From Nanopusillaceae archaeon (GTDB lineage Archaea > Nanobdellota > Nanobdellia > Nanobdellales > Nanobdellaceae), in NCBI GenBank assembly GCA_049974095.1, contig JBMFJD010000009.1:27397-35048 (forward strand): 7,652 bases of DNA, written 5' to 3'. Positions 6 through 7,652 of the stretch are shown piece by piece; within the stretch, counting starts at the first letter, position 1; each line of letters begins with the position of its first letter. The notes beneath the pieces are model-generated. The model was given only the letters and a program-made list of their open reading frames with translations. It was not told where the DNA came from and ran no database searches. The translations under genes were made by a program, and so were the position numbers.

Positions 6-71
6 ATGAAAAAGGCTAGATTTTTTGTTGTACTTTTATTATCTCTATTTTTAGTTAAATCTATCTTCTCT
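6..71 (+). other. Predicted Sec-type signal peptide of the 1251-aa protein (aa 1-22)
   Basis: MKKAR (positive n-region), FFVVLLLSLFLV (h-region), KSIFS (c-region), followed by QNYPY. The cleavage position was estimated by eye only. Confidence 0.6.
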
Positions 72-3000
72 CAAAATTATCCATATACTAATTATTCTGT
101 AATTACTATACAAAATAATGTTAATTCTAACCTTTATAATTATCCTATCTTAATTACATTAAACAATACCCAAACTTTAATGACTAATGGATATTTAAAT
201 CCTACATGTACTAACTTAATATTTCAACAGAACGGACAGGAATTACCTTATTTTGTTCAAACATGTGGTTATATATCTGTAAGCTCATCTATTGGTTTTG
301 GTAATACAAATATGCCCTTATCTAATAATCCAACAATTCCCGTTAGCTTATCTACTGTTAATGGTTCTTGGTGGGGAAATAATGTATGGACTGGATCTTC
401 TCAGGATTCCTATGCATCTATTAGTCTAAATCTCAATGGTTATGCATATCCTATATGGTTAGAGGTAAATACAAGTGGACCTGAATATGCAGTATGGGTA
501 AATGGTCAATATGTATATAATAGTAATCCATGGAACTTTAGTTATAATTCTCAACAACCAGCAAATACGACAGATCAGATATTTGATATAACAAATTATA
601 TAGTACAAAATAGTACAAATAATATATTAATATTTGCTACTAGTAATTCAACAAGTAATTATCTATCATATCAAATTATAATACCATCTGCAAATGTTAC
701 TATTTCTAGTAATGGTGTATATTACTTACCCGGTACAATTTGGGTAAATATACCTTCTATACCCGCAAATAATTATACAAATGTATATTTATTGTTAACA
801 TATCCAAATACATCTACTATTGTTAATAATATGTCAAATGTATTTACATATGGAACACACAAGATATCTAATACATATAATGATGTTGATATAATAAAAG
901 ATACAGTATTTTCTGATGTACCTGGTAGTGAATATGGATATGAACAATGGGTATTAACTCCTTTCCTATACCAAGTGAATGATTATTGTTCTAATAGTAA
1001 TTATTATCTTGTACCATATGAAATTACAAGTATTTCTATACCAGTAAATAAAGGTAAATATACTCTATCCGGTGTAAATATTGGTTATTACTTATCATCA
1101 TATTTACCAAGTACTAGTGTTGGTCCTGAACAATTCATTGCTGTTCAACAAAATTATACCACTAAAGTAAACTCCTGGTCTAGTATAAATATTAATTTAC
1201 CAACACCTATATTCTGGTTATATGGATATTATCTTAATTTAATATTTAATAGACCTCCTATAGGTGGTGCTGGTGAGATATTTGGTATTTCTGGTATGAA
1301 TGCAACAGGATTATATGGAGTTACATCTAATGGTTATTATCCATTATATAATATACCTGTAAAATCCTCCAATATTATTCCACTCTCTTACATTACTGGA
1401 TACTTTAGACCATATATATCACCTGAACCTATGGTTTCTATGAGTGTACTATTAAATATAACCAATGCTACAAACATATCTGCTCCTATATCAATAAATA
1501 TACAATTCCCACAACAAAACTCTACAGTTGCAATATTACCAAATAATCAAATATTACAACCAATTGTTATAATAAACTCTACACTTCCAATAAATAGTTG
1601 TAATATGACATTATATAATAGTGTAAGTGTAATATATAATGGTATATGTACTAATTCAATAAATGTTACTGGTATACAATCTGGATTCTATACATTATCT
1701 GTATCTGCATCAAATCAATATAATTCTACAAATGCTAGTGTATCATTCTATATGACAATTGCAAATGGAGAGTATAACTTTACTTATATAACATATCCAT
1801 CTACTGTTCCATCTATACCATTCTATATTAATATTTCTACAACATGTACCAATAATATCTGTGCTCCTGGACAAGTATCTTTAATAACTCCTGTAGCATG
1901 TTATACTCCAACACCAACTATTAATATACCTGAAATGTTGCCTGGACAAATATTTAATACATCTTTTATTGTTCAATGTGCATATACAACATATCCATAT
2001 GTATTTAATGTTAGTTTCTACTTAGCTGGAAGTTTATTCTCTACACAAAGTATAAGTCTAAATGGACCAACACTATCTTTATCATATAATGTAACTAATG
2101 GTAATCTATATGTATATGCATATCCATCAGGATGGGGACAAAATATAACATTACTTGGTACTGTACAACAAGGATGGGTTATGAATAGTACAACTACTCA
2201 GAGTCAATTCTATGTAAATATTTCTGATGATACTCAATCCTTAATATATAGTAGTCCTGCAATACCGGGACAAACATATGCAGTATATGCACAAGTATAT
2301 TCTCCTCAATTCTTTGATACATATCCAATACAAAGTATATTTGCAACAATACAAGCAACTCAACCGCCTACTATATATTCAGTTACTGCTCCATCTACTA
2401 ATTATAATGGATTATTAACTAATATTTGTTATAATGTTTCAGATCAAATTGTAGTAACAAATGTATATGGATATTATGTAAATAGTTTAGGACAAACAAT
2501 ATATCTATTTAATAATACATACTTTAATCAAACTGTATATGCATGTACTCCAGTTAATTTAACCTTAGGTAATTATTCTATATATGTAAAAGCATGTGAT
2601 TATTCTGGTTTATGTTCTATATTCCCACCGGTACCTGTAAGTATTGTTCCATATCCTCCATATACTATTATAATATATCCATCTAATGTATCTATATTCC
2701 ATTCATCTCCACAAGTAATAAGTATATATTATTCTCATCCATTAGAGCGATATACATCATGTATTATAACATCAAGTAGTGGAATAATCAATATGAAAGC
2801 TACATTATATAATAATACAAATAATACTATTGCATTTTCATTCTCTCCAGGAGAATATAACCTATTTATTACATGTAGTTCAAATTATACTGCAGAAACA
2901 ATTCCATTTACAATAATCTATAATTATTTACCACCAATGATTAATTCTGTAAATATATCAAATGGATACTTAATACTTAATGTATCATCAGATGTTGGAT

Positions 3001-3761
3001 TAGCTAGCATAACATATAATATTACTGTTGGTAATACTACTAATACATATGATCAAACATTATCTGGAACATCTGCAATAATACAAATACCTTTACCAAC
3101 TGGATCATTTACTATTAGTGGATATATATATGATATATCTGGTTTGTCTATGCCATTTATATATGGAGTATCTGGCGTGTCTGTAATATCTACAAATAGT
3201 AGTATTACAAATTCAGCTAGTGGTACTTCTTCATATGTACCACTATTGTTACCAAGTATTAATGTATCTGAAACACCCAAAGGATTAATGGTAACTGCAA
3301 TGGCAGTATCTAAATATTATCCAGTAAACTGTACAATAGAACCACTTAATACAACCGTCAGATTAGATAACTCATTACCATATGCATCAATAATACCAAA
3401 TGCTCCTACTGGTACATATCCTATATATGCTGTATGTACAGATCCAGCAGGTGATATTGCAACATCTAATACTGTACCTGTAAATATATCGCCTGATTAC
3501 TTACAATTTATTGGAACAGCATATGCAATTGCAAATCAAAATACATTATATTCATTACCAATTCTAGGTATAATATTTGCAATACTCGGATATTTATTTA
3601 GATCAAAGACCTTGTTCTTCTCTGGAACAGAATTAGCATTGACAACACCAATAATATATGCAATACTGTCAACAATGAGTCCATTATTTATTGGTCTATC
3701 TATTGTACCGGCAATTATTGGGGCTTATATATTATATAAATATATATTGCCATTATGGTAG
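6..3761 (+). CDS. Giant secreted, C-terminally membrane-anchored, heavily N-glycosylatable multidomain surface/envelope protein; no named homologue recognised
   Basis: The ORF is 1251 codons, far too long to be chance in AT-rich DNA. The N-terminus MKKARFFVVLLLSLFLVKSIFS/QN looks like a Sec signal peptide: basic n-region, hydrophobic core, small residues before a likely cut. I hand-counted about four dozen N-x-S/T sequons. Charged residues are very scarce: aa 481-910 hold about 1 Lys, 0 Arg and 7 Asp/Glu by my count. Cys residues fall in pairs within modules, for example CDYSGLC. The C-terminus has 2-3 hydrophobic helices. Only 5 nt lie upstream, so the promoter is outside the window. Confidence 0.85.
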   Translation: MKKARFFVVLLLSLFLVKSIFSQNYPYTNYSVITIQNNVNSNLYNYPILITLNNTQTLMTNGYLNPTCTNLIFQQNGQELPYFVQTCGYISVSSSIGFGNTNMPLSNNPTIPVSLSTVNGSWWGNNVWTGSSQDSYASISLNLNGYAYPIWLEVNTSGPEYAVWVNGQYVYNSNPWNFSYNSQQPANTTDQIFDITNYIVQNSTNNILIFATSNSTSNYLSYQIIIPSANVTISSNGVYYLPGTIWVNIPSIPANNYTNVYLLLTYPNTSTIVNNMSNVFTYGTHKISNTYNDVDIIKDTVFSDVPGSEYGYEQWVLTPFLYQVNDYCSNSNYYLVPYEITSISIPVNKGKYTLSGVNIGYYLSSYLPSTSVGPEQFIAVQQNYTTKVNSWSSININLPTPIFWLYGYYLNLIFNRPPIGGAGEIFGISGMNATGLYGVTSNGYYPLYNIPVKSSNIIPLSYITGYFRPYISPEPMVSMSVLLNITNATNISAPISINIQFPQQNSTVAILPNNQILQPIVIINSTLPINSCNMTLYNSVSVIYNGICTNSINVTGIQSGFYTLSVSASNQYNSTNASVSFYMTIANGEYNFTYITYPSTVPSIPFYINISTTCTNNICAPGQVSLITPVACYTPTPTINIPEMLPGQIFNTSFIVQCAYTTYPYVFNVSFYLAGSLFSTQSISLNGPTLSLSYNVTNGNLYVYAYPSGWGQNITLLGTVQQGWVMNSTTTQSQFYVNISDDTQSLIYSSPAIPGQTYAVYAQVYSPQFFDTYPIQSIFATIQATQPPTIYSVTAPSTNYNGLLTNICYNVSDQIVVTNVYGYYVNSLGQTIYLFNNTYFNQTVYACTPVNLTLGNYSIYVKACDYSGLCSIFPPVPVSIVPYPPYTIIIYPSNVSIFHSSPQVISIYYSHPLERYTSCIITSSSGIINMKATLYNNTNNTIAFSFSPGEYNLFITCSSNYTAETIPFTIIYNYLPPMINSVNISNGYLILNVSSDVGLASITYNITVGNTTNTYDQTLSGTSAIIQIPLPTGSFTISGYIYDISGLSMPFIYGVSGVSVISTNSSITNSASGTSSYVPLLLPSINVSETPKGLMVTAMAVSKYYPVNCTIEPLNTTVRLDNSLPYASIIPNAPTGTYPIYAVCTDPAGDIATSNTVPVNISPDYLQFIGTAYAIANQNTLYSLPILGIIFAILGYLFRSKTLFFSGTELALTTPIIYAILSTMSPLFIGLSIVPAIIGAYILYKYILPLW
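75..809 (+). other. N-terminal DUF2341-like segment interrupted by a jelly-roll (galactose-binding-domain-like) module
   Basis: aa 24-88 (YTNYSVITIQNN..LYNYPILITLNN...NLIFQQNGQELPYFVQ) and aa 243-268 (GTIWVNIPSIPANNYTNVYLLLTYPN) resemble the two halves of the DUF2341 pattern (itI.N...l.nfpvli.l ... dirF.d.dG..LpY.ie ... vWVkvPsipa....iylyYgn). Between them, aa ~140-213 (YPIWLEVNTSGPEYAVWVNGQYVYNS...QIFDITNYIVQNSTNNILIFATS) resembles the GH2-N/CBM-type jelly-roll pattern (a.VwvNG..v ... fDiT..l..g.N.l.v). These are pattern matches by eye, not profile searches. Confidence 0.35.
1473..3500 (+). other. Array of about seven tandem Ig/PKD-like beta-sandwich modules (aa ~490-1165)
   Basis: A strand motif G-x-[YF]-x-hydrophobic-x-hydrophobic, often followed by D-x-x-G, recurs at about 95-100-aa spacing. 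Examples are GFYTLSVSASN (aa 560), GQIFNTSFIVQCAY (647), GQTYAVYAQVYS (755), GNYSIYVKACDYSGL (855), GEYNLFITCSSN (949), GSFTISGYIYDISGL (1033) and GTYPIYAVCTDPAGD (1136). Confidence 0.5.
3546..3755 (+). other. C-terminal membrane-anchor bundle of the 1251-aa protein (2-3 TM helices, aa ~1181-1250)
   Basis: The hydrophobic segments are LPILGIIFAILGYLF, then a basic loop RSK, then LALTTPIIYAILSTMSPLFI and GLSIVPAIIGAYILYKYIL. Confidence 0.6.
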
Positions 3762-4003
3762 ATAAGAAATTAAAGGAAGAGGCTGCAAAATTTGTTGAAA
3801 AAAGAATTAGATTAGGTTTTGAAACAGAGAAATTACAAAAAAATTATATGAGGAATGTTGCTAAATTCTTAGGATTACCAGTTTCTAAAGTAGAAAAATC
3901 TATGGCAGTACAACACTATTATGAGGTTATAAGAAAAAGTAAGCCTGAAATGGCTAAAAAGATGGTTGCTAAATTATTAGAAAGATGGAAAGAAACAGAG
4001 TAA
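3755..4003 (+). CDS. Small K/E-rich helical cytoplasmic protein, possible helix-turn-helix DNA-binding protein
   Basis: The ORF is 82 aa. Its ATG lies inside the sequence ATGGTAG that also carries the upstream stop (a 7-nt overlap), and its 3' end overlaps the next start by 19 nt. The composition (K, E, A, R rich) is typical of a cytoplasmic protein and contrasts sharply with its neighbours. The segment MRNVAKFLGLPVSKVEKSMAVQHYY fits a helix-turn-helix pattern (hydrophobic-A-x-x-L-G-hydrophobic-x-x-x-x-V). Confidence 0.65.
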   Translation: MVDKKLKEEAAKFVEKRIRLGFETEKLQKNYMRNVAKFLGLPVSKVEKSMAVQHYYEVIRKSKPEMAKKMVAKLLERWKETE

Positions 4004-4716
4004 TAGGTTTATCTATAGATTTATTTAAGTATATTGTTGTAGTTACAATATTAGCATATGCATGGTATCTTGTAGCTGCAATAGTACAACATGGATATCC
4101 TGTACAGGTAATTGTACAATTACAAGAAACACAACAAATCTATCTATATTATATTATACTTGCTACAATTGCAATGCTATATTATGTAGCATCCGCATTA
4201 TTAGATAAATCATATGCTCCAACATATTCAAAATTATTTAGTAAGACTCAATTATTCTGGGCAATAGTATTTATTCTTGTATATTCTATAGCATATTTAT
4301 TTGGGTTATTCAGTAATGGATTTCCACAATTAGCTACTATTGCAACAGCATTACCATTTGCAATCGTACTAGGTGTACAGGGTTTAGTAGAGAATATGTT
4401 TTTCATAGGTACATTAGGATTTGGTATGAAATATGAGCTAACAGAGAGAGATATATCAGGATCTATATTATTAGCAGCAATATTTGTTGCATTTGTTGCA
4501 ATGATGTGGCATTTATATATCTATATCTCAGTAACGATGGTTGGAGGAACATTATATAATGTAATACAAGTAGCAGCATCTGTATTTACTTTCTTCTTCT
4601 TTGGAGCATTGCTATCATTTTCGAATGATAATACATGGACCTGGGATATAGTACACTTTACAGTTAATTTCTTGGTAGCTCTGGCAGGGGCACATGGTTA
4701 TGTTATTATATTCTAA
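3985..4716 (+). CDS. Polytopic (about 7 TM) membrane protein, candidate divergent CPBP-family (CAAX protease / Abi) intramembrane glutamic protease
   Basis: The protein is 243 aa with about seven hydrophobic helices and no Cys. Polar residues inside the last four helices follow the CPBP motif order. V-E136-N-M-F-F-I-G (nt 4390 gag) corresponds to motif 1, EExxxR. M-M-W-H176 (nt 4510 cat) sits at the end of the next helix and corresponds to motif 2, FxxxH. H224-F-T-V-N228 (nt 4654-4668) in the last helix corresponds to motif 3, HxxxN/D. Motif 1 lacks the second Glu and the Arg, and motif 2 lacks the Phe at -4. The CDS call is strong. The family call is a by-eye motif match. Confidence 0.8.
   Translation: MERNRVIGLSIDLFKYIVVVTILAYAWYLVAAIVQHGYPVQVIVQLQETQQIYLYYIILATIAMLYYVASALLDKSYAPTYSKLFSKTQLFWAIVFILVYSIAYLFGLFSNGFPQLATIATALPFAIVLGVQGLVENMFFIGTLGFGMKYELTERDISGSILLAAIFVAFVAMMWHLYIYISVTMVGGTLYNVIQVAASVFTFFFFGALLSFSNDNTWTWDIVHFTVNFLVALAGAHGYVIIF
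4703..4712 (+). promoter_or_regulatory. Possible internal TATA-like box for a leaderless transcript of the 472-aa gene
   Basis: The sequence ttattatatt is centred about 25 nt upstream of the ATG at 4732. The intergenic gap is only 15 nt and has no Shine-Dalgarno-like GGTG/GAGG. TATA-like strings are common in DNA this AT-rich, so support is weak. Confidence 0.25.
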
Positions 4717-4731
4717 ATACAATAATATATA

Positions 4732-6150
4732 ATGAGAGTTAAAATTGAGTATATTCTTGTATCATTGTTGTTATTAGGATTCATTCTTCCTATTATTGTA
4801 GTTAATATATCATCCCTTCATTCATTTAATATACAATGTTCCTTTTTAGCAAATAGTGTAAATGTTGGTAGCGAAATACAATACCAATGTTATGGTACTT
4901 ATCCTTTATCTTCAGGAGATAATATATTTACTATATCTTTACCAGGTATTGGAAATATACAAACATCTTATCTCTCTTTTGTAAATGTTACAGAGCCTAT
5001 ATATAATATTAATATATCTGGATATGTGTCTCCAAATAGTCAAATAACTCAACAAGTCTCTATACCATCTACAGCTACAAATATACTAATATATGGTTCT
5101 TTACAAGGTATACAATCTAATGGTCAATACCCATCTGGTGCATCGATAACTGGTGGTAATTATCCTTTATACTGTAGTCCAACATGTATCTATAATTCTA
5201 GACTAATAATTAATAGTACTGGTAACTATGTCCTAACTATATCTTCTGGTACTGGTGGTGGAGGAGTTAATTATGATATATATGGATCTTATAATTTACC
5301 ATATCCAACTGCAAACATACTTTTAAATGGTATGTTAATACAGTCATTAACATTATCTTCATCTCAAATCATTTCTCTACCTGTTAATTCTTTATCTACC
5401 GTAGATGTACAAGTTAATGGTCAACCAAATGCAAATGTTTTGTTTAATATTATACAAAATTGTTTCTTAGGTGGTGGAAATTGGAGTTGTAGTGAATATA
5501 CAAATCCCCAAAATAGTTCAGAATCTATATTGGATTGTACTACACAAGTAACATCTAATTGTAATTTAAACAATATTAATATTCAGGTACCTATTAGTAT
5601 ACCACAAGTTAAATATTTTTCACAGGCAGTTCAAACCAACGTTTATGTAAATGGAGTGCAGGTTAGTGCTGATACTTCAGGATTAACATCTGTAGCTCCT
5701 TACTTTGTAATATATTCTTTAAATCAAGGAACAAACAATATCGAGATTAAGTCAATATTACCGTTCATATTATCTGGTGCACAGACAGCTATTGGTTCAT
5801 GTCAATTATCTGCAACAAGTATAGATATACAAACACTTTCTGGTCAACCTGTTAATTATACATTATATATTAAAAATGTAGGAAACAGTCCTATACAAAT
5901 ACAAATAGCTGTGCCTGTATCTTTAAGTAGATCAATTTCTGTTAGTCCACAAAGTACTTTAATAGATCCGGGACAAACCATTGGCATTAATATATATATA
6001 AAAGGGCCAATATCTGGTGAGATATATATAAATGGATGTTCATATGAGAGTATTACAATGCCTATATCTGTATCGTATACCAATCCATATATTATATTGA
6101 TTGTACTTGCGGCTGGACTAATTGTTTTATTCCTTGCATTTCACAGATGA
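4732..6150 (+). CDS. Secreted glycoprotein with a C-terminal CARDB/NEW3-like beta-sandwich and a single C-terminal TM anchor
   Basis: The protein is 472 aa. It has an N-terminal hydrophobic segment (MRVKIEYILVSLLLLGFILPIIVV), many N-x-S/T sequons, and ten Cys arranged as local pairs (IQC..YQC, YCSPTC, NCF..WSC, DCT..NCN). aa 356-449 read SCQLSATSIDIQTLSGQPVNYTLYIKNVGNSPIQIQIAVPVS...LIDPGQTIGINIYIKGP...ITMPISVSY, which fits the CARDB/NEW3 pattern (G..v.ltv.V.N.G........v..p......l.pGes..v.v.v). The anchor PYIILIVLAAGLIVLFLAF is followed by the tail HR. Confidence 0.85.
   Translation: MRVKIEYILVSLLLLGFILPIIVVNISSLHSFNIQCSFLANSVNVGSEIQYQCYGTYPLSSGDNIFTISLPGIGNIQTSYLSFVNVTEPIYNINISGYVSPNSQITQQVSIPSTATNILIYGSLQGIQSNGQYPSGASITGGNYPLYCSPTCIYNSRLIINSTGNYVLTISSGTGGGGVNYDIYGSYNLPYPTANILLNGMLIQSLTLSSSQIISLPVNSLSTVDVQVNGQPNANVLFNIIQNCFLGGGNWSCSEYTNPQNSSESILDCTTQVTSNCNLNNINIQVPISIPQVKYFSQAVQTNVYVNGVQVSADTSGLTSVAPYFVIYSLNQGTNNIEIKSILPFILSGAQTAIGSCQLSATSIDIQTLSGQPVNYTLYIKNVGNSPIQIQIAVPVSLSRSISVSPQSTLIDPGQTIGINIYIKGPISGEIYINGCSYESITMPISVSYTNPYIILIVLAAGLIVLFLAFHR
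5797..6078 (+). other. CARDB/NEW3-like Ig-fold domain of the 472-aa protein (aa ~356-449)
   Basis: See the motif alignment described for the parent CDS. This is a by-eye pattern match. Confidence 0.45.
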
Positions 6151-6566
6151 TAGTAAAGGTAGGAAATAAATATTATTATATTGGAGATAAGGTAGCGAGA
6201 ACTATATTAAAAAGAATCTCTGATAATAAAATACATACAATAGAATCTATTAAAGATATAAAGGAACAATATGGAAAAAGGGTTTATGATGTACTATGGA
6301 CTTTAAATAAAGAAGGTATTGTTGATATAAAGAAAACATTTACTGGTAAACTATTAATGAAATCTAAGGCTAAGGAAGTAAAATATATCAATATTTTATT
6401 AATTATCTCAATATTTACTTCTACAGGTATATATCTATTATCTCTATTATTGATAAAACAAGAGTTATTTAGATATATTGGTGTTCTAATTGGTTTGGCG
6501 TCTACTATAGAAATAATATTATTATTATTAAGTAAGAAGGTATTTGATGATATGGAGACTTTATAA
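6147..6566 (+). CDS. Membrane-tethered winged-helix-like protein (N-terminal wHTH-like domain plus C-terminal TM hairpin)
   Basis: The protein is 139 aa, and its start overlaps the upstream stop as ATGA. aa 12-66 (ARTILKRISDNKIHTIESIKDIKEQYGKRVYDVLWTLNKEGIVDIKKTFTGKLL) have the helix / helix-turn-helix / beta-wing layout of MarR/TrmB/PadR-type winged helices. aa 80-103 (YINILLIISIFTSTGIYLLSLLLI) and 108-128 (FRYIGVLIGLASTIEIILLLL) form two TM helices, followed by a short acidic tail KKVFDDMETL. Confidence 0.75.
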   Translation: MIVKVGNKYYYIGDKVARTILKRISDNKIHTIESIKDIKEQYGKRVYDVLWTLNKEGIVDIKKTFTGKLLMKSKAKEVKYINILLIISIFTSTGIYLLSLLLIKQELFRYIGVLIGLASTIEIILLLLSKKVFDDMETL

Positions 6567-6567
6567 A

Positions 6568-6573
6568 TTTTTT
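6568..6573 (+). terminator. Oligo-T tract (T6) immediately after the stop of the 139-aa gene; candidate archaeal intrinsic terminator
   Basis: The sequence reads taa-a-tttttt-g, with the tract starting one nt after the stop codon (6564-6566). It sits in the only sizeable intergenic gap in the window (6567-6632). Runs of five or more T are known termination signals for archaeal RNA polymerase. Confidence 0.45.
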
Positions 6574-6597
6574 GCTAGTACGTTCCCTGTATTGTAG

Positions 6598-6632
6598 TTT
6601 TTATTATAAATATCTATGAGTAATAAATATAT
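6598..6632 (+). promoter_or_regulatory. Archaeal TATA-box promoter for a leaderless transcript of the downstream gene
   Basis: In tttttattataaata, the core attataaa at 6603-6610 is centred about 26-27 nt upstream of the ATG at 6633. That is the canonical TATA-to-start distance in Sulfolobales-type promoters when the transcript starts at or next to the start codon. There is no Shine-Dalgarno motif. An in-frame stop (taa, 6624-6626) closes the frame just upstream. Confidence 0.55.
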
Positions 6633-7652
6633 ATGGCAATGACAAAGCAGACAGAGTATATATTAGCAGCACTATTTTTGTTATTAATAGGGGGTATAGC
6701 ATACATGTCATATACGGGAGTAAAGCCATCGGCACCAGTATCAGTAGCCTGTGGTCCAATACTATCACAGGTATACGGACTGTCAGGACAAGCAGTAAGT
6801 GAAGTAGCAAAAGTATTAAATTCAGTAAACAATAATCCAGTACAAGGTGCTAACATATATGCATTTAGCACACAACCATATTACTGGGGACAATCACAAG
6901 TATGGAGTTTAGCATCATCTATGGTATTAGGACAAACACCAACAGCAGTTACAGGAACACAAGGTAATGCTACATTACAAGTAACAATTCCATCAGGAAA
7001 TCAAACATCAACAGAATATTTAATTGTAACAGCACCAGGATACTGGACAGAATTATACACATTATCGACAGGATTTAATTCATTATTCTCAGCATCATCT
7101 GAACAACAATGTGTTCAATTATACCCATATTCAACAATACAAGACTTGTTACCATCTTTAATACAAGTACAAGCACAAGATGTATTAACAGGAAAGATAG
7201 TACAATTAAACCAAATAACATTGGAACCAGTTGGATCACTAGTACCAAATATTACAACAGTTTCATTAGGAGTAAACTCTAACCAATTCGGAGCATCATT
7301 AACAGGAGGATACGTTGGATTCGTAAGCGGTGGATCATTAAGAATTACAGGTATTAAATTAATAGGATTAAACATGTCAAATGACGGAATACAACAAGTA
7401 TCATTAACAATAACAGCAAATGGACAAACATTATACAATGGTGTAGTATATAATGCATTAAACTCTAACTTACCATTAGGATCAGGATCAGGAACATACA
7501 CAATATCTGTACCAAATGGAGTAGTTGAAATACCAAATGGAGGACAATTACAAATACAATTACAAGTAGTTGCAAACACTAATACAGAACAAACAGCAGG
7601 ATACTTATATCCAGGAGAACAATTCATGCAAATACAATTACAATTAGCAGAC
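6633..7652 (+). CDS. N-terminally anchored, beta-rich, Q/G/T/V-rich extracellular protein, 3'-truncated by the window edge; likely abundantly expressed structural or surface protein. Not in the supplied ORF track.
   Basis: I translated 340 consecutive sense codons by hand with no stop through the last base of the window: MAMTKQTEYILAALFLLLIGGIAYMSYTGVKPSAPVSVACGPILSQVYGLSGQAVSEVAKVLNSVNNNPVQGANIYAFSTQPYYWGQSQVWSLASSMVLGQTPTAVTGTQGNATLQVTIPSGNQTSTEYLIVTAPGYWTELYTLSTGFNSLFSASSEQQCVQLYPYSTIQDLLPSLIQVQAQDVLTGKIVQLNQITLEPVGSLVPNITTVSLGVNSNQFGASLTGGYVGFVSGGSLRITGIKLIGLNMSNDGIQQVSLTITANGQTLYNGVVYNALNSNLPLGSGSGTYTISVPNGVVEIPNGGQLQIQLQVVANTNTEQTAGYLYPGEQFMQIQLQLAD. The gene shows strong, uniform codon bias (caa, aca, gga, gta, tta, cca, tca, gca), has one N-terminal TM helix (aa 9-27), and has a promoter and terminator context upstream. 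Met3 (6639) is an alternative start. Confidence 0.85.
   Translation, partial: MAMTKQTEYILAALFLLLIGGIAYMSYTGVKPSAPVSVACGPILSQVYGLSGQAVSEVAKVLNSVNNNPVQGANIYAFSTQPYYWGQSQVWSLASSMVLGQTPTAVTGTQGNATLQVTIPSGNQTSTEYLIVTAPGYWTELYTLSTGFNSLFSASSEQQCVQLYPYSTIQDLLPSLIQVQAQDVLTGKIVQLNQITLEPVGSLVPNITTVSLGVNSNQFGASLTGGYVGFVSGGSLRITGIKLIGLNMSNDGIQQVSLTITANGQTLYNGVVYNALNSNLPLGSGSGTYTISVPNGVVEIPNGGQLQIQLQVVANTNTEQTAGYLYPGEQFMQIQLQLAD

Follow-up and report, generated by a model that had tools for sequence, protein, structure and literature searches.

The stretch of DNA analysed here (hereafter the window) comprises 7,652 bp of contig JBMFJD010000009.1, positions 27,397 to 35,048, from an assembly labelled as a Nanopusillaceae archaeon. 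With a GC content of ~29%, it carries six co-directional open reading frames (ORFs) on the plus strand, designated genes A to F, among which gene C encodes a membrane protein that is very probably a highly divergent intramembrane protease, whereas its larger companions encode secreted or membrane-anchored proteins. Each of the six genes was identified as an ORF, and they are laid out as follows:

6..3761, + strand: gene A, 1251 amino acids (aa), a secreted, sequon-rich giant surface protein
3755..4003, + strand: gene B, 82 aa, a soluble, basic, helical protein with a helix-turn-helix (HTH)-like motif
3985..4716, + strand: gene C, 243 aa, a protein with seven transmembrane (TM) helices, very probably of a divergent CPBP/Rce1 type
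4732..6150, + strand: gene D, 472 aa, a Cys-rich extracellular protein with an immunoglobulin (Ig)-like domain
6147..6566, + strand: gene E, 139 aa, a winged-HTH (wHTH)-like domain followed by a membrane hairpin
6633..7652, + strand: gene F, more than 340 aa and open at the window end, an N-terminally anchored, beta-rich extracellular protein

A preliminary description of this DNA, made from the letters alone, had proposed six co-directional genes, and the ORFs lie exactly where it placed them; judged from homologues of 353–361 aa, gene F is short by about 12–20 codons at the window end. The genes overlap by 7 nt (A/B), 19 nt (B/C) and 4 nt (D/E, as ATGA), with a gap of 15 nt between C and D, and the start/stop overlaps imply that their translation is coupled. 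At 29% GC, ~8% of random codons are stops, which by simple arithmetic gives a chance of ~1e-9 for an open frame of 243 codons; moreover, all six genes are under purifying selection when compared with two relatives, the ratio of non-synonymous to synonymous substitution rates (dN/dS) ranging from 0.06 to 0.57 (A, 0.32–0.44; B, 0.11–0.21; E, 0.06–0.19; F, 0.31–0.57). For these two reasons, the six ORFs are regarded as real genes and not as products of chance. An antisense ORF of 170 aa within F (7115–7627, minus strand) is probably an artefact, given that conservation and purifying selection are seen in the plus-strand frame. No ATPase, integrase, tRNA, Rfam family or tandem repeat was found in the window, and searches with Pfam and PHROGs detected no capsid hallmark either, as the preliminary description had stated; similarly, its remark that A, B, D, E and F resemble no named protein agrees with Pfam, PHROGs and NCBIfam, which returned no significant named match for any of the five, and PADLOC likewise yielded nothing significant for the window proteins.

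Protein C is the centre of the argument, and the codons of its putative catalytic residues are located as follows:

4390..4392, + strand: codon of E136 in motif 1 (V-E-N-x-F-F-I-G), the counterpart of E140 in MmRce1
4510..4512, + strand: codon of H176 in motif 2 (A-x-x-W-H), the counterpart of H173 in MmRce1
4654..4668, + strand: codons of H224-F-T-V-N228 in motif 3 (HxxxN), the counterpart of H227/N231 in MmRce1

Three of these residues (E136, H176 and H224) had already been singled out when CPBP-like motifs were first noticed in C, and they, as also N228, are invariant in 15 sequences, 11 of which are close to C (50–95% identity) and 4 distant (25–37%); H224 and N228 of motif 3 are thus unchanged down to 25% identity. 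The positions of this tetrad nearly coincide with 140/173/227/231 of MmRce1, whose cavity residues are E140, H173, H227 and N231 (PMC5874806). The family also possesses invariant motifs of its own, namely PTY and DNTW. In what follows, L-numbered loci are related DNA from other assemblies, and P-numbered sequences are C-family proteins. When the C-family profile was run against 1.84 billion representatives, just five clusters were retrieved, including P0013 (E 4e-21) and P0014 (E 3e-14), and an hhalign comparison of the C family with the distant group (P0013–15) gave 99.9% with E 3e-31 over 233 columns. P0014 passes the PF02517 model with 25.7 bits (gathering score, 22.4) and P0013 nearly does so with 21.9 bits; as the C profile reaches both of them, C is homologous to PF02517 transitively. 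The AlphaFold model of C (pLDDT 77, pTM 0.80) consists of seven helices, and a Foldseek search of 350,542 PDB chains with this model placed MmRce1 on top (4cad_L; prob 0.90, TM-score 0.47, full length) and SpdC (6u0o), a CPBP pseudo-protease, third. The top match of the same model in BFVD is a CAAX prenyl protease of Orpheovirus (prob 0.99). Because the invariant tetrad, the transitive link to PF02517 and the fold matches in PDB and viral structures converge, C is classified with high confidence as a very divergent CPBP/Rce1-type intramembrane protease by fold and family, and as a putative enzyme. As far as sequence can tell, it is a new orphan CPBP subfamily, matching no named subfamily model, in a new operon architecture.

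The conservation of gene order in related loci had been set beforehand as the main test that could refute the proposal, and it does not do so: the order A-B-C-D-E is kept in every locus that spans it (L002/L013, L003-5, L006, L007, L008 and L014), down to ~50% identity in C. Gene F directly follows E in L013, L014 and L008, and in L006 two inserted genes lie between them (8110–10021), encoding a 495-aa Pro/Thr-rich secreted protein and a 128-aa SWIM zinc-finger protein. At greater distances the arrangement is preserved in part: in L010, where C is 37% identical, genes for an A-like and a small protein are still found ahead of C, and in L011, where C is 28% identical, a D-like N-terminus still follows it. 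In place of D, L010 has an AAA-ATPase-like protein after C (3676–4731; weak Pfam AAA match, E ~0.01). Protein C is the most conserved of the cassette proteins and A, B and F diverge fastest, as would be expected if an enzyme were accompanied by exposed partners that evolve quickly. Furthermore, the C family was found solely in the context of this cassette, with 15 members from 5.8 billion clusters plus 1.84 billion representatives.

Variation among copies of the cassette is considerable. The Nanopusillaceae metagenome-assembled genome (MAG) from which the window comes contains three divergent copies of C, one identical to C (ACP5GJ_03585, protein MGC9133453.1, on the 35,048-bp contig) and two that are ~62–63% identical to it (ACP5GJ_02600, protein MGC9133266.1, on a contig of 59,894 bp, and ACP5GJ_03790, protein MGC9133492.1, on one of 28,702 bp); they may reflect paralogous islands, a mixture of strains, or the binning of several related elements into one MAG. 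Two divergent types are also present in a single ENA sample, L007 and L008 both originating from ERZ1669249. The DNA identity between positions 1970–7652 of the window and 1–5790 of L013 is mosaic, varying from 0.64 to 0.94 per 300-nt window, and the synonymous divergence (dS) from L013 is 0.22 in the C-terminal part of A versus 0.7–1.5 in B–E, a four-fold reduction; this mosaic identity and the contrast in dS suggest that variants have recombined close to the A/B boundary and within D. In six independent assemblies (L013, L014, L007, L009, L005 and L010) the contig ends inside gene A, at differing positions, which suggests that the N-terminal two-thirds of A are hypervariable in the population and break the assembly.

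The three anchored surface proteins differ in how they are held in the membrane, and every topology given for them in the preliminary description is reproduced by hydropathy. Two features of A were mapped to the DNA:

6..77, + strand: signal peptide of A (aa 1–24), hydrophobic over aa 3–24, with MKK...SIFS conserved in L008 and L003
3540..3749, + strand: C-terminal membrane bundle of A (aa 1179–1248, 2–3 TM helices), from hydropathy

The C-terminal TM segments of A span aa 1179–1204 and 1215–1248 by hydropathy, A is 29–91% identical to its homologues, and the membrane bundle is kept in all of them, including a 24%-identical one in L010. Protein A contains 49 N-x-S/T sequons versus 26.6 expected from its composition and only 21 Lys plus Arg residues; Ig-like stretches are present, and its N-terminus gives a weak match to DUF2341 (LamG-like; E 0.017), a domain that is matched in homologues with E 3.7e-19 (L006) and 1.3e-7 (L008). 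Protein D has TM segments at aa 1–32 and 445–472, ten Cys residues that are invariant among homologues, and a HYDIN/VesB-like Ig domain at aa 359–422 (E 1.8e-5, just below the gathering score). Its homologues are ~40% identical overall, and yet G16, F17, P20 and N25 are invariant in its N-terminal segment (window 4732–4827), which, unlike an ordinary signal peptide, is possibly a recognition element or a permanent membrane helix. The C-terminal tail of D is dibasic across homologues (HR/HK/RK/RR/KR) and carries no conserved signature motif. Protein F has a single TM segment at aa 7–30, homologues in L013, L014, L008 and L006 at 43–92% identity, and just weak CBM32 and CarboxypepD_reg-like matches. 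All three of A, D and F are very poor in Lys/Arg, and the composition of A and D (sequon-rich, Cys-rich and K/R-poor) is that usually found in archaeal surface proteins that are exposed, glycosylated and stabilised by disulfides; searches of PDB sequences with the profiles of A, D and F returned nothing useful. Two candidate identities were rejected. The lengths of 1251 and 472 aa are reminiscent of a surface-layer (S-layer) operon of the SlaA/SlaB type, but A has its own membrane bundle, two genes stand between, and no homology was found; a type IV pilin-like signal in F was likewise discarded, as F has no [KR]-G/A cleavage motif.

The small proteins B and E had been described as HTH-like and wHTH-like, which for B is suggested by a motif and for E by a weak resemblance to wHTH regulators. 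Protein B has no TM segment, contains 21 Lys plus Arg residues and shares the family motif Y..N...A[KR]F[LI]G[VL]; its HTH-like motif is A.FLG.....V, and its profile matches the IAxxLGxSxxxV repeats of a designed HTH-repeat protein (PDB 8vd6). In the family alignment of E, a conserved soluble N-terminal domain of ~75 residues is followed by two TM helices, which form a hairpin at aa 80–104 and 107–133 by hydropathy. The wHTH-like domain occupies ~aa 14–75, but the best PDB matches of the E profile are weak (PH1932, E 0.044; PadR, E 0.2; a repressor, E 0.45), Pfam gives no match, and the single-sequence AlphaFold model, a beta-hairpin plus three helices, has low confidence (pLDDT 65), with Foldseek matches that are tri-helical HTH domains and non-significant. 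It is plausible, by motif and profile, that B and E are DNA-binding-like proteins.

Transcription of the cassette appears to be divided at a single point, between E and F:

6567..6632, + strand: the sole true intergenic region, with a T-run at 6568–6573 after the E stop and a TATA-like box, TTATTATAAATA, at 6601–6612

The box lies ~26 nt upstream of the F ATG, and because this spacing fits archaeal promoter geometry, F is probably on a separate, leaderless and stronger transcript from this putative promoter. Both the T-run and the TATA-like box are conserved in the window, L013, L014 and L008, four lineages, at the single internal terminator/promoter-like junction noted earlier; in L006 the box preceding F reads TTTTAAATA.

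The conserved block reaches beyond the window on both sides, as a longer run of secreted and membrane proteins. Upstream of A lies a trio of genes (L003 4683–6122; L006 170–1624; L008 3–182) for a 201–204-aa protein, a 70–79-aa protein on the opposite strand and a 183–209-aa secreted protein; the 70–79-aa protein is ribbon-helix-helix-like by eye and has no significant Pfam match. Downstream of F come a ~206-aa TM protein, two larger proteins that are secreted or anchored (844 and 959 aa), and some small membrane proteins. The L013 contig as a whole is dominated by surface proteins, and large, secreted, sequon-rich proteins of 844, 959, 903 and 510 aa are encoded at 6513–11919, 16367–19078 and 21385–21919; the 959-aa protein, one of two such large L013 proteins, ends in a TM helix and a basic tail, and the 844-aa protein has no C-terminal TM segment. 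Otherwise, the surrounding 22–28 kb contain almost no recognisable genes, and in 22 kb of L013 only three products are recognisable by Pfam, namely a truncated MCM-like AAA+ protein, a MarR/HTH_24 wHTH regulator and a PALP enzyme, an orphan of the PLP-enzyme kind. The first is a 391-aa protein on the minus strand (13763–15771), ~9 kb downstream of the cassette, that consists of the MCM AAA+ core only (PF00493, E 9.6e-24); it is followed by a 93-aa ORF and then by the MarR/HTH_24 protein. Its best matches in the virus collection are mini-MCMs of archaeal viruses, the top one being that of an Altiarchaeum virus (28.6%). The 294-aa PALP enzyme (20489–21373), whose detectable relatives are found solely on the same kind of contig, adjoins a 73-aa paralogue of B (20291–20512) with the motif YCRNVGVFLGIG.

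Searches for the carrier elsewhere were negative. Neither C nor the C alignment found a relative among 185,579 GTDB species representatives; the window DNA and tblastn of the six proteins gave no match in a phage/archaeal-virus collection in which the inclusion of NAV1 is unconfirmed; C and P0014 had no match among plasmids; and no tRNA was present in the carrier DNA examined. A circular linkage between the downstream genes of L013 and the upstream genes of L003 was considered and rejected, as they share no homologues. Given the ORFan-rich L013 contig, the viral-type MCM, the absence from GTDB, the three copies in one MAG and the mosaic identity, the evidence leans towards a mobile or viral element, or else a hypervariable island, as the carrier in preference to a stable core chromosome.

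The reading put forward here is accordingly in two parts, both tentative. It is a credible proposal, although one falling short of probable, that the window belongs to a conserved block of surface or envelope glycoproteins that includes an intramembrane protease of its own and lies on a variable element of low GC content, rich in ORFans. More tentatively still, C may be dedicated to this block and may cut a membrane-embedded or juxtamembrane segment of a co-encoded partner; the dedication is suggested by the sole context of the C family, the conserved order, the gene overlaps, the conservation pattern and the invariant segment of D. An active C would then cleave such a segment in one or more co-encoded membrane proteins, for which the candidates are the N-terminal GFxxP...N segment of D, the C-terminal helix bundle of A and the hairpin of E, and as a result the substrate would be matured, released or activated, while the expression of F, from a TATA-like promoter of its own, would be separate and probably stronger.

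A number of findings weigh against this reading. Protein C itself has no direct match in Pfam (E <= 1), PHROGs, NCBIfam or PADLOC, and neither single nor profile queries against PDB sequences matched Rce1. Its motif 1 reads V-E-N-M-F-F-I-G, in which the second Glu of the canonical EExxxR is replaced by Asn/Thr and the Arg is missing, and its motif 2 has a nearly invariant Ala172 where FxxxH has Phe; in MmRce1, the cavity-facing residue of the Glu pair is E140, not E141 (PMC5874806). The Foldseek E-values for C are weak (0.27–0.44) and not significant alone. The positive-inside rule suggests a cytoplasmic N-terminus for C, whereas both termini of MmRce1 are on the non-cytosolic side (PMC5874806). 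No neighbour of C shows a shared C-terminal signature motif, a cleavage site or a CaaX end, the C-termini being LPLW (A), KETE (B), VIIF (C), AFHR (D), METL (E) and FTVQG (F homologues). In the carrier, no capsid, packaging, integrase or attachment-site (att) features were seen in any locus, and Pfam and PHROGs detected no capsid, portal, packaging ATPase or integrase in ~40 proteins of the window, L003, L006 and L013; likewise, IMG/VR yielded no relatives when scanned with A, with the alignments of C, D and F, or with the MCM of L013. Since searches of the Pfam/PHROGs type miss many capsid proteins of archaeal viruses, the carrier may be a virus in spite of the lack of hallmarks. Finally, the Nanopusillaceae label of the carrier (Nanoarchaeota, DPANN; lineage Nanobdellota, Nanoarchaeales), which already departs from the Sulfolobales-type organism supposed in the preliminary description, derives solely from the binning of metagenomic sequences.

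The nature of the carrier allows two more definite readings, neither of them probable. The block might serve a virus, or virus-like element, of Nanoarchaeota that has escaped recognition as its structural module for the envelope or for adsorption, a rather unlikely but serious possibility, and it is about as unlikely that A, D and F, together with the 844-, 959- and 903-aa proteins, are glycoproteins of the virion or of the infected-cell surface, with C as a maturation protease or a superinfection-immunity factor. Contigs of 28–35 kb made up almost wholly of ORFans, small regulators and a mini-MCM resemble archaeal viruses; the lone metabolic-looking gene, that for PALP, is related just to the same contig kind; the block is absent from all species-representative genomes, and several divergent versions occur together in one sample and one MAG. 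The assembly breaks in A at six loci would be expected for a hypervariable receptor-binding protein, and giant viruses are known to encode CAAX-protease homologues. Set against these points are the failure of Pfam/PHROGs to detect a capsid, portal, packaging ATPase or integrase, the lack of relatives in IMG/VR and in the phage and archaeal-virus set from GenBank, the length of the 59.9-kb contig that carries one copy, which is long for such a virus, and the absence of circularity and att evidence from the results. The viral envelope alternative that the preliminary description had raised is nonetheless at least as likely as cellular display, for which the mini-MCM and the ORFans of the related contig are responsible, even though the capsid, packaging and integrase genes were not found; a new virus family infecting Nanoarchaeota, themselves ectosymbionts of other archaea, with an Rce1-type protease of its own that matures the glycoproteins or frees E, is doubtful. 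Alternatively, and with similarly low credence, the block could be an island in the chromosome of the nanoarchaeon, varying from strain to strain and serving host attachment or an S-layer-like purpose, with C as the resident processing protease. The copy identical to C and its two paralogues are, after all, annotated in a Nanopusillaceae MAG, and a GC content of ~29% fits Nanoarchaeota, being in keeping with their genomes. Nanoarchaeota invest heavily in surface glycosylation, and hypothetical surface proteins have the highest densities of non-synonymous single-nucleotide polymorphisms in them (PMC6142677; PMC4935971); A, D and F are K/R-poor, like the predicted S-layer protein of N. acidilobi (PMC4935971). 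A chromosomal island, however, sits poorly with the lack of any C relative in the GTDB species representatives, which are assumed to include cultured Nanopusillus, with the absence of conserved cellular genes within 22–28 kb, and with three copies that would take up a large share of a ~0.6-Mb genome.

Whichever carrier applies, the action of C on its neighbours may also be read in other ways than the dedicated cleavage preferred here. It is unlikely, although worth considering, that C does not cut them at all and has a role in immunity or as a scaffold, comparable to that of bacteriocin-immunity Abi/CPBP proteins or of SpdC, a pseudo-protease by which a partner enzyme is regulated; the third-best structural match is SpdC (6u0o), no cleavage motif was found in the neighbours, and many prokaryotic CPBPs have non-sorting roles. 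The tetrad, however, is invariant across 25–95% identity, which argues for retained catalysis, and no bacteriocin-like peptide, transporter or PADLOC match lies nearby. Improbable, in turn, is regulated intramembrane proteolysis, in which C would cut the E hairpin and the freed wHTH would act at the F promoter or at another site. Such a circuit would be suited by E, whose wHTH-like domain is attached to a TM hairpin and which is always encoded with C, and by the conserved promoter-like element directly after E, but the wHTH assignment is weak (E 0.04–0.45, with a low-confidence model), an operator repeat was not identified, E is coupled to D and not to C, and we know of no CPBP with such a signalling role on a tethered transcription factor. 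Least probable of all is a myxosortase-like activity, by which C would remove the C-terminal TM anchor of A, D and other anchored proteins and couple them to lipid, as proposed for MrtA and CGP-CTERM. CPBP sorting proteases have been predicted for Cys-containing C-terminal signals, including archaeal ones (bioRxiv 10.1101/2023.06.07.544157), sorting by MrtX has experimental support (PMC11980579), and D and the 959-aa protein do end in a TM helix and a basic tail. Nevertheless, no NCBIfam myxosortase model (e.g., NF040590) matched C or P0012–P0015 at E <= 1, and neither a conserved signature motif nor a Cys adjoining the TM helix is present; the invariant Cys436 of D is ~20 residues upstream of it and probably disulfide-bonded, because it is one of an even set of ten. 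In addition, three helices form the C-terminal bundle of A, and a C-terminal TM segment is missing from F and from the 844-aa protein. The processing of anchors by C in an ArtA- or sortase-like manner, as the preliminary description had envisaged, is thus not supported, as the anchored proteins have no C-terminal signature motif in common.

Prokaryotic Rce1/CPBP proteases are abundant and mostly without known substrates, and the operon of C offers an unusually short list of candidates, in that its small orphan clade (~15 sequences) is confined to a single operon in which few membrane proteins are encoded. Attachment to the host archaeon is commonly ascribed to the surface proteins of Nanoarchaeota; a cellular block would be a candidate module for host recognition, present in three variants per genome. 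A viral block would represent a new virus group missed by current viral-detection pipelines, and if C matured its glycoproteins or freed E, no earlier archaeal virus would be known to carry an intramembrane glutamic protease of defined role. With either carrier, a tethered wHTH beside an intramembrane protease provides a testable candidate for archaeal regulated intramembrane proteolysis.

Among known systems, the closest to the carrier are viral. The 391-aa MCM of L013 is 23–29% identical to the mini-MCMs of an Altiarchaeum virus, Haloarcula tailed virus 3 and TPV1, but it lies outside the window and is not proof of a virus. NAV1 (of Munson-McGee et al. 2020, J Virol), to our knowledge the sole described nanoarchaeal virus, is reportedly circular, ~35.6 kb in length and endowed with 52 ORFs; compared by description only, it has a similar host clade, the size of the 28–35-kb carrier contigs and mostly ORFans, whereas 22 kb of L013 showed neither the methyltransferase nor the glycosyltransferase that have been ascribed to NAV1. 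For the protease, the likeness to ArtA/PGF-CTERM is conceptual, as it lies in the C-terminal anchor processing of archaeal surface glycoproteins; ArtA is an exosortase-type enzyme unrelated to C, and no exosortase-family enzyme was matched by Pfam or NCBIfam in the window or the flanks examined, nor any PGF-like motif found in A, D or the 959-aa protein. The preliminary description had held that no archaeal equivalent beyond ArtA was known, which is outdated, since the CPBP "archaeomyxosortase" MrtA was predicted by Haft for CGP-CTERM in Thermococcales (bioRxiv 10.1101/2023.06.07.544157). Myxosortases and MrtA are akin to C as CPBP proteases genomically tied to secreted, membrane-anchored surface proteins, but they serve dozens of dispersed substrates, whereas C is embedded in one operon whose proteins have differing anchor modes and lack the tripartite signal, which in myxosortase substrates consists of a signature motif with an invariant Cys, a TM segment and an Arg-rich cluster (bioRxiv 10.1101/2023.06.07.544157). 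SpdC/LyrA, bacteriocin-immunity Abi proteins and MroQ share the predicted fold of C and are likewise found in operons with target proteins; SpdC, however, has lost its catalytic residues and C keeps all four, in an archaeal lineage and with no bacteriocin, quorum peptide or peptidoglycan enzyme present. From Rce1 proper, C is set apart by its surroundings, in which no neighbour ends in CaaX and nothing suggests prenylated substrates. Compared with the Rce1/CPBP family at large (PF02517; 4CAD), C differs in having seven predicted helices versus eight, non-canonical motifs 1 and 2, and PTY and DNTW motifs of its own, but it is likewise predicted to be a polytopic helical bundle, with 4cad_L as its best structural match, and it keeps the Glu, two His and Asn residues and the HxxxN motif of the oxyanion hole.

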